Virus record (IMG/VR): IMGVR_UViG_2617270943_000001
Coordinates: 1-26,221 of that record
DNA: 26,221 bases
DNA from: a virus
Lineage: Duplodnaviria > Heunggongvirae > Uroviricota > Caudoviricetes
Strand: one strand, 5' to 3'
Below, in pieces: positions 5,284 through 14,343 of this stretch. Both the position numbers and the translations under genes were made by a program. How positions within the stretch are numbered: the stretch's first letter is position 1; every line of letters begins with the position of its first letter. Below the pieces are notes generated by a model. That model made no database searches, was not told where the DNA came from, and saw nothing but the letters and a program-made list of their open reading frames with translations.

Positions 5284-5973
5284 CTACCCATGCTTCCTAT
5301 ATGTCTGCGGCATGCTCCCAATAACCTTACCGAAGATGAACACCCGGTTCATCTCGTCTTTCTCGATCGGGTCCCACGGTGAGTAGCTTTTGTTATCAGA
5401 GATGACCAGCAGCTTATCCTTCATCATTTGCAGGCGCTTTACATGGGCTGTGTCGTCGTACAGAAACGCATAGATACCATCACCGTCGAAAGATTTAACT
5501 GTGATATCAACGAACAGCAGATCACCTGGTTCGATCGTTCCTGACATGCTGTCACCACGCACGTTAATGATGCGGATATTTTCCGCCTTCCTACCATCGA
5601 ACATGTGACGAGCATCGTCAAACGAGTACTCAACCGAGCGTAGAACTTCTACAAACTCACGGTTGATGACTCCCGGCCCAGCACTGACTTCTATATCAAG
5701 AACGTCAATCTTGAAGTATTTGGAATGGCTGACAGTTGATTGTATTGGTTGCACTGTACTGTCTGACATATTTCCAACGCCAGAAGATAACCATTCTGCG
5801 CGCACACCCAAAGCGTTCGCGATCTCCACGATTTTAGTTGTTTGATTAGCTTTCCCTGTTTCGATTTTCTGAATAGCAGCCTGGCTAACCCCGACCAAAT
5901 CCCCAAGCGCCTTTTGTGTAAGGCCTCGCGCTAATCTGGCTTCTTTAAGTCTTTCTGAGAGTGTTGTTTTCAT
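5284..5973 (-). CDS. cI: cI-type repressor: N-terminal HTH plus C-terminal S24 (LexA-like) autopeptidase, 230 aa
   Basis: HTH LTQKALGDLVGVSQAAIQKIE; Ala-Gly cleavage site (SAGPG); catalytic Ser (GDSM) and Lys (VKRL). Divergent from the cro-like gene across an operator-rich spacer. ATG at 5973 has no Shine-Dalgarno, consistent with a leaderless PRM transcript as in lambda. Confidence 0.85.
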   Translation of the reverse strand: MKTTLSERLKEARLARGLTQKALGDLVGVSQAAIQKIETGKANQTTKIVEIANALGVRAEWLSSGVGNMSDSTVQPIQSTVSHSKYFKIDVLDIEVSAGPGVINREFVEVLRSVEYSFDDARHMFDGRKAENIRIINVRGDSMSGTIEPGDLLFVDITVKSFDGDGIYAFLYDDTAHVKRLQMMKDKLLVISDNKSYSPWDPIEKDEMNRVFIFGKVIGSMPQTYRKHG

Positions 5974-9584: not shown

Positions 9585-11111
9585 ATGAAAAAAGCCATAG
9601 CATATATGCGATTTTCATCACCAGGTCAGATGTCTGGCGACTCATTAAACCGACAGAGAAGACTTATTGCTGAATGGTTAAAGGTAAATAGTGATTATTA
9701 TCTTGATACCATAACATATGAAGATTTAGGATTAAGTGCATTCAAAGGAAAGCATGCACAATCAGGAGCTTTTTCGGAATTTTTAGATGCTATAGAGCAT
9801 GGTTATATATTGCCAGGAACTACATTGTTAGTTGAAAGTCTGGACAGACTTTCAAGAGAAAAAGTCGGTGAAGCGATTGAACGTCTGAAATTGATTTTGA
9901 ATCACGGTATTGATGTTATAACTCTTTGCGACAATACAGTCTATAATATTGACTCTTTGAATGAGCCATATTCATTAATAAAAGCCATACTTATAGCACA
10001 AAGGGCAAATGAAGAAAGCGAGATAAAGTCAAGTCGGGTTAAATTATCATGGAAGAAAAAACGGCAGGATGCACTGGAATCAGGTACGATTATGACGGCG
10101 TCTTGTCCGAGATGGCTCTCCTTAGATGACAAAAGAACGGCTTTTGTTCCAGACCCCGACAGGGTGAAAACTATTGAGCTAATTTTTAAACTCAGGATGG
10201 AAAGGCGCTCATTGAATGCAATAGCCAAGTATTTAAATGATCATGCTGTAAAGAATTTCTCAGGAAAAGAAAGTGCATGGGGACCTTCTGTAATTGAAAA
10301 ATTATTAGCGAATAAAGCTCTGATAGGTATATGCGTACCTTCATATCGTGCAAGAGGTAAAGGAATAAGTGAAATCGCTGGCTATTATCCCAGAGTCATA
10401 TCAGATGATTTGTTTTACGCTGTACAGGAAATTCGGTTGGCACCTTTTGGTATTAGCAATAGTAGCAAAAATCCTATGTTGATAAATCTACTTCGAACAG
10501 TTATGAAGTGCGAGGCTTGTGGTAATACCATGATTGTTCATGCGGTATCTAGAAGTTTGCATGGCTATTATGTTTGTCCGATGAGAAGACTGCATCGATG
10601 TGACAGGCCATCAATAAAGAGAGATTTGGTTGATTATAATATCATTAATGAGTTGCTTTTTAATTGTAGTAAAATCCAACCAGTTGAAAACAAGAAAGAT
10701 GCTAATGAAACTTTAGAGTTGAAAATTATTGAGCTCCAGATGAAAATTAATAATTTAATTGCTGCATTATCTGTTGCGCCTGAAGTTACCGCTATAGCAG
10801 AAAAAATCAGAGTATTAGATAAGGAATTACGAAGGGCTTCTGTATCATTAAAAACTTTGAAGAGTAAAGCGGTGAGTTCACTTGGTGATTTTCATGCTAT
10901 TGACTTAACCAGTAAAAATGGGCGAGAGCTATGTCGTACACTTGCCTATAAAACATTCGAAAAAATCATAATCAATACAGATAATAAAACCTGTGATATC
11001 TATTTTATGAATGGCATTGTTTTTAAACACTATCCTTTAATGAAAACAATATCCGCCCAGCAGGCGATAAGTACTCTCAAATATATGGTTGATGGTGAGG
11101 TTTATTTTTGA
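9585..11111 (+). CDS. ybcK: Large serine recombinase (resolvase/invertase-type N-terminal domain with recombinase and zinc-ribbon extension), 508 aa
   Basis: N-terminal AIAYMRFSSPGQ with catalytic-Ser context and LLVESLDRLSR motif; C-terminal CxxC...C cluster; AT-rich codon usage; resembles DLP12 YbcK. Confidence 0.8.
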   Translation: MKKAIAYMRFSSPGQMSGDSLNRQRRLIAEWLKVNSDYYLDTITYEDLGLSAFKGKHAQSGAFSEFLDAIEHGYILPGTTLLVESLDRLSREKVGEAIERLKLILNHGIDVITLCDNTVYNIDSLNEPYSLIKAILIAQRANEESEIKSSRVKLSWKKKRQDALESGTIMTASCPRWLSLDDKRTAFVPDPDRVKTIELIFKLRMERRSLNAIAKYLNDHAVKNFSGKESAWGPSVIEKLLANKALIGICVPSYRARGKGISEIAGYYPRVISDDLFYAVQEIRLAPFGISNSSKNPMLINLLRTVMKCEACGNTMIVHAVSRSLHGYYVCPMRRLHRCDRPSIKRDLVDYNIINELLFNCSKIQPVENKKDANETLELKIIELQMKINNLIAALSVAPEVTAIAEKIRVLDKELRRASVSLKTLKSKAVSSLGDFHAIDLTSKNGRELCRTLAYKTFEKIIINTDNKTCDIYFMNGIVFKHYPLMKTISAQQAISTLKYMVDGEVYF

Positions 11112-11255
11112 GTAATAATCACTTTTTCAACCGTGCTATAGTAAGAAAGTTAGGTAAGTACATTTAGACTGGCCCCCTGAATCTCCAGACAACCAATATC
11201 ACTTAAATAAGTGATAGTCTTAATACTAGTTTTTAGACTAGTCATTGGAGAACAG

Positions 11256-11621
11256 ATGATTGATGTCTTAGGGCCGGAGAAACGCAGACGGCGTACCACA
11301 CAGGAAAAGATCGCAATTGTTCAGCAGAGCTTTGAACCGGGGATGACGGTCTCCCTCGTTGCCCGGCAACATGGTGTAGCAGCCAGCCAGTTATTTCTCT
11401 GGCGTAAGCAATACCAGGAAGGAAGTCTTACTGCTGTCGCCGCCGGAGAACAGGTTGTTCCTGCCTCTGAACTTGCTGCCGCCATGAAGCAGATTAAAGA
11501 ACTCCAGCGCCTGCTCGGCAAGAAAACGATGGAAAATGAACTCCTCAAAGAAGCCGTTGAATATGGACGGGCAAAAAAGTGGATAGCGCACGCGCCCTTA
11601 TTGCCCGGGGATGGGGAGTAA
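11256..11621 (+). CDS. insC: IS2 transposase OrfA (InsC)
   Basis: Translation [47 protein letters not shown]... with HTH; ends just after the AAAAAAG slippery heptamer at 11573..11579. Confidence 0.9.
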
Positions 11622-12484
11622 GCTTAGTCAGCCGTTGTCTCCGGGTGTCGCGTGCGCAGTTGCACGTCATTCTCAGACGAACCGATGACTGGATGGATGG
11701 CCGCCGCAGTCGTCACACTGATGATACGGATGTGCTTCTCCGTATACACCATGTTATCGGAGAGCTGCCCACGTATGGTTATCGTCGGGTATGGGCGCTG
11801 CTTCGCAGACAGGCAGAACTTGATGGTATGCCTGCGATCAATGCCAAACGTGTTTACCGGATCATGCGCCAGAATGCGCTGTTGCTTGAGCGAAAACCTG
11901 CTGTACCGCCATCGAAACGGGCACATACAGGCAGAGTGGCCGTGAAAGAAAGCAATCAGCGATGGTGCTCTGACGGGTTCGAGTTCTGCTGTGATAACGG
12001 AGAGAGACTGCGTGTCACGTTCGCGCTGGACTGCTGTGATCGTGAGGCACTGCACTGGGCGGTCACTACCGGCGGCTTCAACAGTGAAACAGTACAGGAC
12101 GTCATGCTGGGAGCGGTGGAACGCCGCTTCGGCAACGATCTTCCGTCGTCTCCAGTGGAGTGGCTGACGGATAATGGTTCATGCTACCGGGCTAATGAAA
12201 CACGCCAGTTCGCCCGGATGTTGGGACTTGAACCGAAGAACACGGCGGTGCGGAGTCCGGAGAGTAACGGAATAGCAGAGAGCTTCGTGAAAACGATAAA
12301 GCGTGACTACATCAGTATCATGCCCAAACCAGACGGGTTAACGGCAGCAAAGAACCTTGCAGAGGCGTTCGAGCATTATAACGAATGGCATCCGCATAGT
12401 GCGCTGGGTTATCGCTCGCCACGGGAATATCTGCGGCAGCGGGCTTGTAATGGGTTAAGTGATAACAGATGTCTGGAAATATAG
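11579..12484 (+). CDS. insD: IS2 transposase OrfB (InsD; DDE catalytic domain, expressed by -1 frameshift fusion to OrfA)
   Basis: The ORF is in the -1 frame relative to insC and overlaps it by 43 nt; sequence matches IS2 InsD as recalled, with the DDE catalytic core expected for an IS3-family OrfB. Confidence 0.9.
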
Positions 12485-12558
12485 GGGCAAATCCAACATT
12501 AAAATTATCTATCCTGAACGAAGCGTCCTGAGCTATGGTTTTACTATAGAGACTGCCA

Positions 12559-12882
12559 ATGGATGCTGGCGTTCTCGTTCTAGCAGTTCAACAATACCCA
12601 ATCACAAAACAATTCACTGATAACGAACTTTGCACACTCGCCTGGTTATGGCGAGCAGGGAATGTGATGTTAATTACCTACCAGAACGTTACTCCTCTTC
12701 TTCAGGTTGCGGAGCATCGTGAAGCTGGTCGCTTCACTTCTATCGAGCAAGAATATCCCCAGATACTCAATAAGGCACAGGCAATCCTTGCCAGAGAAAC
12801 GGCACATGTAAAATTCCGGCCGTGGCAGGATGATAAGTGGAGTCGAGTTTTGCCGCATTTACGTTCGGATCGATTACAGTAG
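12559..12882 (+). CDS. Hypothetical protein, 107 aa (orphan ORF immediately right of IS2)
   Basis: ORF with ordinary codon usage; no recognisable motif; not a lambda nin-region gene. Confidence 0.4.
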   Translation: MDAGVLVLAVQQYPITKQFTDNELCTLAWLWRAGNVMLITYQNVTPLLQVAEHREAGRFTSIEQEYPQILNKAQAILARETAHVKFRPWQDDKWSRVLPHLRSDRLQ

Positions 12883-13343
12883 ATTCCAATTAACAATGAG
12901 AAACACATAGCCACCCCGTGGTATTGAAACCATATAATGTTGGATTTGAAAACAGATCTTTTTCCATGTATTAATAACTACATCCCCGCGAGTGATTCAA
13001 AAAGGAGGGCCCAATTTTGTCCGAGTTTTTGTATTCCCCCGCATGCCGCTGCGGAGCACTACATCTGAGTGTCTGACTAGGGGATAAAATTAGACTGGAT
13101 AGTGAGAAGAAAGTGGCGTGCTAGGCTGTGCCGAGTGCTACCAGTACACCCTGGGGGTGTGCAGCTTTCGCCGAGACTGTAGTGGGTATCGGTTAATGCA
13201 CGAAAAACCGAGAGGTCAGACAACCAATTTGCCGTAGGATTGTTTCCGGTGCGATACCGGTGTACTAACTGAAAGCAATGCGAAAAAGCATAAACTCGGT
13301 CCTTCAGTCGCCCTACACACTATTTACTAAGAAGGGCTAAAGC

Positions 13344-13700
13344 ATGGATACAATTATCACATGGATGGGAGATCGTCTGTTGGGGTGGATAACAAACAAA
13401 TCCGATCTGCGGCAGAGGGCAATCACTGGATTAACTCCTGCGATTTATTCAACAATTTTATATACTGAAAAATTAAAACGTGGTGAGCCTAATAACCCAA
13501 ACGAAGAAGAAAAACTTTATAGGCTTTGGTATGAAGCGTCTTCCCAAGTCGTAGACTTTGATCGAGAGCTGGCTAAAAGATGTTTAGATAAATCAGAATA
13601 TTGGCTTCATTCTGAATTATATAGCCCTGAGAAAGTTGGAGAGCTAAACATTTCTTTGGTTGGTATGAAGGCAACGCTTGAAGGAATAAAGCACAATTAA
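13344..13700 (+). CDS. Hypothetical protein, 118 aa (AT-rich orphan ORF)
   Basis: ORF with AAGGG Shine-Dalgarno-like sequence upstream, preceded by a GC-rich structured leader; low-GC codon usage suggests foreign origin. Confidence 0.45.
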   Translation: MDTIITWMGDRLLGWITNKSDLRQRAITGLTPAIYSTILYTEKLKRGEPNNPNEEEKLYRLWYEASSQVVDFDRELAKRCLDKSEYWLHSELYSPEKVGELNISLVGMKATLEGIKHN

Positions 13701-13887
13701 AACCTTTGATTTGCGATAATCAACTCGCCATAATCATGTCATCGGAGCCTGAACAACTCCGGTGACTTCTGCGCTAAACGGGGACGTTTATGCGCACACA
13801 CAATCCAAACTCTCTTCTCCCTCCAAAGATGCAGAAATGCACCTGCGATATATTGTATCCAGCGTTTGACCTCTGCGGAGGTGAAGC

Positions 13888-14343
13888 GTGAATCTCCCAC
13901 AAGATGGCATCAAATTACATCGCGGTAACTTCACCGCTATCGGTCGGCAGATCCAGCCTTATCTGGAGGAGGGCAAATGCTTTCGCATGGTGCTTAAACC
14001 GTGGCGTGAGAAACGCAGTCTTTCCCAGAATGCACTCAGCCACATGTGGTACAGCGAAATCAGTGAATACCTCATCAGCAGGGGTAAAACGTTCGCTACT
14101 CCAGCTTGGGTAAAAGATGCTCTCAAACACACATATCTCGGTTATGAAACCAAAGACCTGGTTGATGTTGTAACCGGTGATATCACCACTATCCAGTCGT
14201 TACGCCATACCTCCGATCTTGATACCGGAGAGATGTATGTCTTCCTGTGTAAGGTTGAAGCCTGGGCGGTGAATATTGGCTGCCACCTGACTATTCCGCA
14301 GAGCTGCGAGTTCCAGCTGCTCCGCGACAAGCAGGAGGCGTAA
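13888..14343 (+). CDS. ybcN: NinB-like protein (YbcN family), 151 aa
   Basis: Translation [27 protein letters not shown]...[13 protein letters not shown] matches DLP12 YbcN and the NinB family RSLxQN motif; GTG start. Confidence 0.8.

Follow-up and report, generated by a model that had tools for sequence, protein, structure and literature searches.

A covarying structured RNA borders a slot for interchangeable small genes in a DLP12-type prophage of Escherichia coli

Introduction

Type III toxin–antitoxin loci are laid out in the order promoter, RNA, terminator, toxin, and a constant N-terminal domain with varied C-terminal fusions is a pattern typical of conflict-system proteins. The Aravind group is said to have described the latter as the logic of 'effector-associated domains', in which constant N-terminal domains are joined to swappable C-termini. 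Here we set against these arrangements a locus of the IMG/VR virus record IMGVR_UViG_2617270943_000001 (Caudoviricetes), which was analysed over its positions 1–26,221 (26,221 nucleotides (nt); hereafter the window) and which represents a DLP12-type lambdoid prophage of Escherichia coli. The locus consists of two small open reading frames (ORFs) of 107 amino acids (aa; 12559–12882, +) and 118 aa (13344–13700, +), both present in the ORF list at the positions and lengths given by an initial annotation of the DNA, and of a non-coding block between them.

The most novel object of this locus is the RNA encoded between the two ORFs. In the reading that we favour, with a probability of roughly 60%, the locus would combine three independent things, namely the 107-aa remnant of an antirepressor-type gene, an RNA gene and a 118-aa cargo gene ('moron'), and the 118-aa protein would be read from the transcript of the RNA and play a role in conflict.

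Results

The non-coding block, which the initial annotation had called structured, is a genuine plus-strand structured RNA that is absent from Rfam. It is approximately 330–350 nt long and occupies 12981–13330 (+), with an nhmmer envelope of 12976–13330. The consensus fold calculated with RNAalifold from 15 distinct sequences has 93 pairs, 97.4% of cells are paired in it, and its outermost helices join 12981–12987 with 13080–13086 and 13093–13098 with 13304–13309. Twenty pairs were changed on both sides, compared with 2–4 in slid-partner controls, and the covariation score was 0.263 compared with approximately 0.055 in the controls; none of 500 shuffles reached the observed values. The many G-U pairs assign the RNA to the plus strand. 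Folding of the single sequence was unremarkable (z-scores of −0.29 and −0.15) and thus lends the structure no thermodynamic support, so that it is covariation that carries it.

A block of about 350 nt is located upstream of every close homologue of the 118-aa gene, with approximately 78–82% identity, and the same block also occurs in Klebsiella phages without the 118-aa gene. Its range includes E. coli genomes as well as prophages and phages of Klebsiella, Enterobacter and Obesumbacterium. Conservation of the RNA far exceeds that of synonymous sites in the adjoining 118-aa gene: lineages in which these sites are saturated still share about 80% identity in the RNA. Among 5426 complete E. coli genomes, 159 (about 3%) contain the block, in each case without RefSeq annotation of the RNA, and 0 hits to the RNA pattern were obtained in species-representative genomes. 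A search against Rfam 15 gave no match in the window at the gathering threshold, and a permissive search of 12400–13950 returned a single hit at chance level (E = 8.9). ARAGORN detected neither tRNA nor tmRNA, and Tandem Repeats Finder detected no tandem repeats in 12480–13900. Literature searches with the accessions, the PHROG identifiers, nin-region RNAs and ybcN hotspots yielded nothing relevant. The RNA has a function of its own, being maintained whatever the cargo, in the absence of cargo and next to decayed copies of the 118-aa gene; it could act in trans, serve as a leader or gate the slot downstream.

Short reading frames occur within the RNA. Two small ORFs that were called there in the record of phage Turner are probably spurious. 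At 13003–13075 (+), a conserved AAGGAGG precedes by 8 nt a UUG that opens a 19-codon frame (LSEFLYSPACRCGALHLSV), which ends in an invariant GUCUGAC and is kept in 14 of the 15 variants; it was set aside as a possible coding sequence, as the substitutions fit RNA pairing at least as well. The GUCUGAC (13072–13078) is complementary to an invariant GUCAGAC (13207–13213), and the two may form a long-range or pseudoknot contact.

The interval between the RNA and ybcN is a slot with variable content. A census of phage, IMG/VR, metagenome and genome records gave 51 distinct downstream contexts, of which 17 showed the 118-aa gene after the RNA and 12 a truncated, decaying form of it, all of these without a terminator. 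The other contexts held a 178-aa protein with a transmembrane (TM) helix at each end (n = 10, terminator), an unknown protein of 183 aa (n = 7, terminator) or 177 aa (n = 2, no terminator), a pair of 93-aa and 162-aa proteins (n = 1, no terminator), the ordinary nin gene DUF1367 with no cargo (n = 1, contig L018, terminator) and an unclassified sequence (n = 1, terminator). Behind the RNA there are, in other words, at least five unrelated cargo types or none, and none of the alternative cargo had a Pfam or PADLOC match. In most related loci a ybcN-type gene follows the variable cargo. Where the RNA is missing, the same interval holds a HEPN protein (PADLOC candidate PDC-M28A) and its 133-aa partner in O157:H7 and an unknown 169-aa protein in O104:H4. 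The cargo hotspot suspected in the initial annotation is therefore real, located between the antirepressor-type gene and ybcN, with the 118-aa gene as one among several passengers that can replace each other. In IMG/VR, each of the 24 close relatives of the 118-aa gene adjoins the RNA and has no terminator before it. The truncated lineage (L046, L020, L022, L049 and others) retains 59–66 codons, with a deletion of approximately 137 nt and many replacements, next to an RNA that is approximately 98% identical.

Two of the alternative cargo proteins have recognisable features. The 178-aa protein (MNEAWAAITAGVIAAAAGG...; L074, L057, L036, L089, L092 and others), with its one TM helix at each end, is the commonest cargo outside E. 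coli, always stands behind a terminator and comprises two subtypes that are about 49% identical. The 183-aa protein, encoded at 5416–5967 of Klebsiella phage Kp4856-1 (L003) and also in L037, L083, L094, L097 and L099, contains an RLRHNLLH (Rx4H-like) motif. Classification of the 183-aa protein as HEPN-like and of the 177-aa protein as PIN-like was based on short motifs with no profile match and is not relied on.

The RNA is preceded by a promoter-like site. In all 15 diverged RNA variants the GTTG of a −35 element, a 17-nt spacer and a T(T/A)(T/A)AAT-type −10 element were found at a fixed distance from CCCCGCGAG, and this site is kept although the flanks differ among the variants. In the window, the putative sigma-70-like promoter, which the RNA would have for itself, is located at 12946–12974 (+), with −35 TTGAAA at 12946–12951, a 17-nt spacer and −10 TATTAA at 12969–12974, and the RNA is predicted to start near 12981–12983. 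At its other end, the RNA terminates in an intrinsic terminator in most phage lineages and in 19 of the 51 downstream contexts, and the gene that comes next after a terminator starts 25–50 nt on, too close for it to have its own promoter. The 29 contexts with the 118-aa gene or its truncated form all lack a T-run after the RNA. Downstream of 13700 no terminator was detected, and the only promoter-like site upstream of the 118-aa gene is that of the RNA. Given the putative RNA promoter, the missing terminator and a Shine-Dalgarno-like AAGAAGGG (13329–13336, +; read from the sequence) at 7 nt before the ATG of the 118-aa ORF, the 118-aa protein is most likely translated from the transcript of the RNA itself, including in the lysogen.

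Sequence conservation indicates that the 118-aa ORF is a real, selected and uncharacterised gene. It has full-length homologues with 51–79% identity, among others in Obesumbacterium and Enterobacter, with 44 invariant columns. The Nei-Gojobori ratio of non-synonymous to synonymous substitution rates (dN/dS) is 0.06–0.12 between clades, at saturated synonymous sites, and 0.16–0.30 within the Enterobacter-type clade. With a G+C content of 38%, compared with 47% for the window and 50% for the upstream block, the ORF is as low in GC as had been noted. Structure prediction, which had been suggested as a check, gave an AlphaFold2 model of a four-helix bundle with a mean pLDDT of 80. The protein matches phrog_12412 from end to end (4.9e-71), while its truncated form corresponds to phrog_8527 and a distant branch to phrog_28881 (Klebsiella phage ST101-KPC2phi6.3). 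It had no match in Pfam, NCBIfam or PADLOC, a sequence search of the PDB with the family profile was empty, and Foldseek comparison of the model with viral models gave no match at E ≤ 0.001. Relatives of the close family numbered 0 in species-representative genomes. Searches of PADLOC-DB v2 matched neither of the two ORFs at E ≤ 1 and gave two stray weak hits among 50 members of the wider family.

The 118-aa gene has the traits of a phage moron: its GC is deviant, it is replaced or truncated in related phages, and the viable phages Turner and IdasGreatGrand carry it. A 51%-identical homologue is located between holE-like and xis/int genes of another prophage, without the RNA, and a 25%-identical one between the lysis and terminase genes of a Klebsiella phage; given these other prophage sites, the gene behaves as a mobile single-gene moron.

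A profile of ten 118-aa homologues retrieved 351 cluster representatives at E ≤ 0.001, most of them stand-alone proteins of 115–140 aa. In a 50-sequence family alignment, which was too diverse for locus retrieval, T37, Y40, W62, K83 and W87 are invariant and there is no invariant histidine. An affiliation with HPt/CheA P1 domains was rejected, the identity being 7–13% with no Hpt Pfam hit and no invariant His; the resemblance is that of any four-helix bundle. The domain also forms the N-terminus of longer metagenomic proteins (P0073, P0054, P0062, P0117, P0168, P0153 and P0161). P0073 has a C-terminal TIR_2 domain (3.8e-18), and its N-terminal 100 residues align to the 118-aa family with an hhalign probability of 99.2%; the others end in TIR-like, multi-TM or alpha/beta-hydrolase-like regions. 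This N-terminal domain looks like an undescribed effector-associated domain family without a Pfam model. Three distant stand-alone family members were found in accessory contexts, one of them in an integrative element by HNH and methylase genes, and no constant partner gene was found among the three.

The 107-aa ORF is, by sequence comparison, a decaying 3' remnant of a gene of the Bro-N plus P22AR_C antirepressor family. Residues 15–85 of its product match positions 3–73 of the 73 positions of Pfam P22AR_C (PF10548) with E = 1.1e-15 and 57.9 bits (cut-off of 22.4), and the antirepressor PHROGs that it matches are always matched at their C-terminal ends. It is 85% identical to residues 101–202 of a 202-aa protein of O157:H7 (WP_001415151.1), the gene of which is syntenic with the 107-aa ORF and encodes a Bro-N domain (residues 15–101) plus P22AR_C. 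In the 107-aa product itself there is no Pfam match to Bro-N, and its length is below the approximately 200–250 aa of the full-length proteins. Intact alleles of 202 or 249 aa are located directly upstream of the same RNA and 118-aa gene in the IMG/VR contigs L019, L034, L013, L016 and L055, and other contigs have kept only the last 24–28 codons of an antirepressor-type gene. The initial annotation had treated both ORFs as orphans and as candidate effectors: the 118-aa ORF is a bona fide uncharacterised gene, but the label is wrong for the 107-aa ORF, which has recognisable kin and is a 5'-truncated remnant of a known gene type instead of a candidate effector.

Comparison at the DNA level showed that the ATG of the 107-aa ORF and its next three codons are out of the ancestral frame, which a 1-nt deletion then restores. 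Homology to the intact gene stops at or shortly upstream of this ATG, beyond which any similarity is degenerate and interrupted by indels. In O104:H4 the copy of this truncated form contains an internal stop, shorter variants of the protein are present among protein clusters, and the lineage of the window has MLITYQ instead of MLTACQ, with replacements at positions that are invariant elsewhere. The dN/dS of the 107-aa ORF to the nearest intact allele is 0.39 (7 non-synonymous and 5 synonymous changes), compared with 0.07–0.21 among intact alleles, a contrast that is suggestive only, given the small numbers. In their 3' part, the truncated alleles are not the closest kin of one another. The Bro-N domain would have been lost when a DLP12-type ybcK/emrE segment was joined to an antirepressor-type gene. 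IS2, which is inserted upstream, was considered as the cause of the truncation and rejected: because the identical ORF is present in IS2-free strains, the element neither created nor truncated it. Sequences like the 107-aa ORF occur in 839 of the 5426 complete E. coli genomes, of which at least 351 have the truncated version and share the upstream junction of the window. The 107-aa ORF is most likely inert.

The gene order around the locus is ybcK, IS2, 107-aa ORF, non-coding block, 118-aa ORF, ylcH-like mini-ORF, ybcN, ninE, ybcO and rusA. The large serine recombinase gene ybcK is located at 9585–11111. It is followed by a complete IS2 of 1331 bp (11165–12495, +) with insC/insD-type ORFs (11211–11621 and 11579–12484, +), which is inserted in the spacer between ybcK and the 107-aa ORF, 63 bp upstream of the ATG of the latter, and is flanked by a 5-bp target duplication ACATT (11160–11164 and 12496–12500). 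The exact junctions were obtained by comparison with the IS2-free strain MB56 (L001) and agree with the earlier placement of the 107-aa ORF to the right of IS2; among complete RefSeq E. coli genomes, the exact IS2 junction had no match. The right border of the slot is formed by the ylcH-like 33-aa ORF (13790–13891, +) and ybcN (13888–14343, +), as annotated by RefSeq in the identical region of MB56. In 95 complete E. coli genomes this arrangement recurs without IS2 and with 99.9% identity, and it is also found in the phage isolates Turner (L002, PP925837.1) and IdasGreatGrand. The phage isolate records PP925837.1 (Escherichia phage Turner) and PP925829.1 contain the whole DLP12-type early-right region, with ren, emrE/qacE, ybcK, the 107-aa ORF, the RNA, the 118-aa gene, ybcN to quuD and an ompC-like porin gene, and thus DLP12-like phages bearing this cargo appear to be still viable.

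Discussion

Our best guess for the 118-aa protein is an accessory protein of the lysogen with a role in conflict. It would be a soluble four-helix bundle that acts by protein–protein binding in phage–phage or phage–host conflict, be it exclusion, defence or counter-defence, and would not be an enzyme. The sole functional clue is indirect and consists in the fusion pattern of the domain; since the domain occurs elsewhere in fusion with TIR and membrane modules, the 118-aa protein can reasonably be proposed as an adaptor or inhibitor of a conflict system. The more specific proposal of a superinfection-exclusion, anti-defence or toxin role in the initial annotation found no link to a known family of these kinds and is a guess from the location of the gene and the distant domain fusions.

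Several observations weigh against the reading of the locus as a remnant, an RNA gene and a conflict moron. The 118-aa protein had no match among known defence, anti-defence and toxin families, its fold is generic, and the TIR and TM fusion proteins are distant from it (approximately 26% identity). About a third of the E. coli carriers of the RNA (approximately 59 genomes, with 95–99% RNA identity) have the truncated, decaying 118-aa gene, so that the gene is dispensable. A strict consensus scan for promoters and terminators did not call the RNA promoter and gave no convincing terminator, and we infer the promoter, the 5' end of the RNA, the co-transcription and the expression in the lysogen from sequence features. 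Finally, most copies of the 107-aa ORF are still open; the 3' parts of the truncated alleles are, however, mosaic with intact genes, so that recombination can explain why many copies stay open.

The open copies bear on the alternative that the 107-aa ORF still encodes a working protein, a P22AR_C domain on its own, which might for instance modulate the full-length antirepressors of co-resident prophages. The open form is common, with clusters of 28–224 members, PHROG 7640 is matched over its full length, PGAP annotates a protein and dN/dS to other alleles is below 1. Against this stand a start codon that is out of the ancestral frame and has no clear ribosome-binding site, the lineage-specific replacements at otherwise invariant positions, the existence of shorter variants and of variants with stops, and the mosaic alleles, in which recombination instead of selection can keep the frame open. 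We regard a functional 107-aa protein as clearly unlikely. Still less can be said for both ORFs and the block being one undescribed multi-gene system, which the initial annotation implied. In the window and in 95 E. coli genomes they do lie next to each other on one strand, but the distributions of the two ORFs are independent (839 genomes with the 107-aa sequence compared with 159 with the RNA), the RNA and 118-aa gene are also found behind intact 202/249-aa alleles, 24-codon stubs and unrelated genes, and the 107-aa ORF is a truncation product. Because of these independent distributions, the two ORFs are not a pair, and we give the one-system explanation next to no probability.

The RNA and the 118-aa protein could alternatively form one functional unit, in which the RNA is either a cis-acting leader or sensor gating an effector or a type III-like RNA antitoxin to a toxic protein. 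The RNA is indeed directly upstream of every close 118-aa homologue, the layout is that of attenuator-controlled genes and ToxIN-type loci, and the alternative cargo, 25–50 nt after a terminator and with no room for a promoter of its own, would depend on read-through. The same RNA, however, is followed by at least five unrelated proteins and by no cargo in L018, it has no tandem repeats, and it is 98% intact where the 118-aa ORF has decayed. The terminator stems, moreover, differ between variants, with no conserved alternative pairing as judged by eye. A pairing of RNA and protein is weakened by this promiscuity of the RNA, by the RNA-free homologue (51% identity, between holE-like and xis/int genes) and by the missing conserved alternative pairing near the terminators, and we consider it unlikely, though not negligible. 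In a broader variant, which is somewhat more doubtful, the RNA acts in cis as a sensor or leader and its terminator is the gate to interchangeable effectors (118-aa, 2-TM, 183-aa and 177-aa); if true, lambdoid prophages would have in the RNA and slot a plug-in cassette for exclusion or abortive infection under RNA control, and the gate would have been removed in the 118-aa lineage. By analogy to domain-only viral inhibitors of death-fold signalling, the 118-aa protein might also be a counter-defence decoy, a lone version of the N-terminal domain through which host TIR or membrane effectors assemble or are recruited, and would block these by heterotypic binding. This would suit a small, phage-borne gene whose product aligns (hhalign, 99.2%) to the N-terminal 100 residues of a protein with C-terminal TIR_2 and whose domain carries multi-TM or hydrolase-like C-termini in other members. 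The fused relatives are only about 26% identical, though, none was found in Enterobacterales, and most family members are stand-alone and not obviously phage-borne, which makes a decoy very unlikely.

In the favoured reading, one false lead is removed from the locus, the 107-aa ORF being a gene remnant, and the 118-aa lead is sharpened. The slot upstream of ybcN in the nin region is a genuine exchange point for unknown small genes, and in one phage lineage it is bordered on the left by a covarying and strongly conserved RNA of approximately 330 nt that is described in no database. A new structured RNA of this size would itself be notable in the well-studied lambdoid phages, and its fixed place before swappable cargo offers an easy way to find and test new accessory functions of prophages. 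The 118-aa protein adds an uncharacterised helical domain family that elsewhere is fused to TIR and membrane modules.

Comparison with known systems

The 107-aa ORF resembles the Bro-N/P22AR_C antirepressor family, named in part for the C-terminal domain of P22 Ant, in having the whole P22AR_C domain at the same place of the prophage map, and differs in lacking Bro-N and in having a new start codon outside the ancestral frame; it is a fragment that does not show the domain architecture of the family. ToxIN-type loci share the order of promoter, RNA, intrinsic terminator and protein gene with the sister loci of the window. Unlike in these loci, the RNA has a single complex fold and no tandem direct repeats, and the downstream proteins are unrelated to each other and to known type III toxins. 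The intrinsic terminator, too, accompanies only other cargo and is lacking in the window as well as in each of the 29 contexts that include the 118-aa gene or its truncated form.

The 118-aa protein belongs to PHROG 12412, with 8527 and 28881 as its relatives, but these families carry no functional annotation and membership says nothing on mechanism. Like the constant N-termini of conflict effectors, its domain is small, all-helical and homologous to the N-termini of TIR_2, multi-TM and hydrolase-like proteins. It differs from described effector-associated domains in that no such Pfam model matches, that the protein of the window is stand-alone and that no partner NTPase or sensor is encoded nearby. 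In common with phage morons, the 118-aa cargo is low in GC, is located between conserved phage genes and is presumably transcribed with the flow of early genes.

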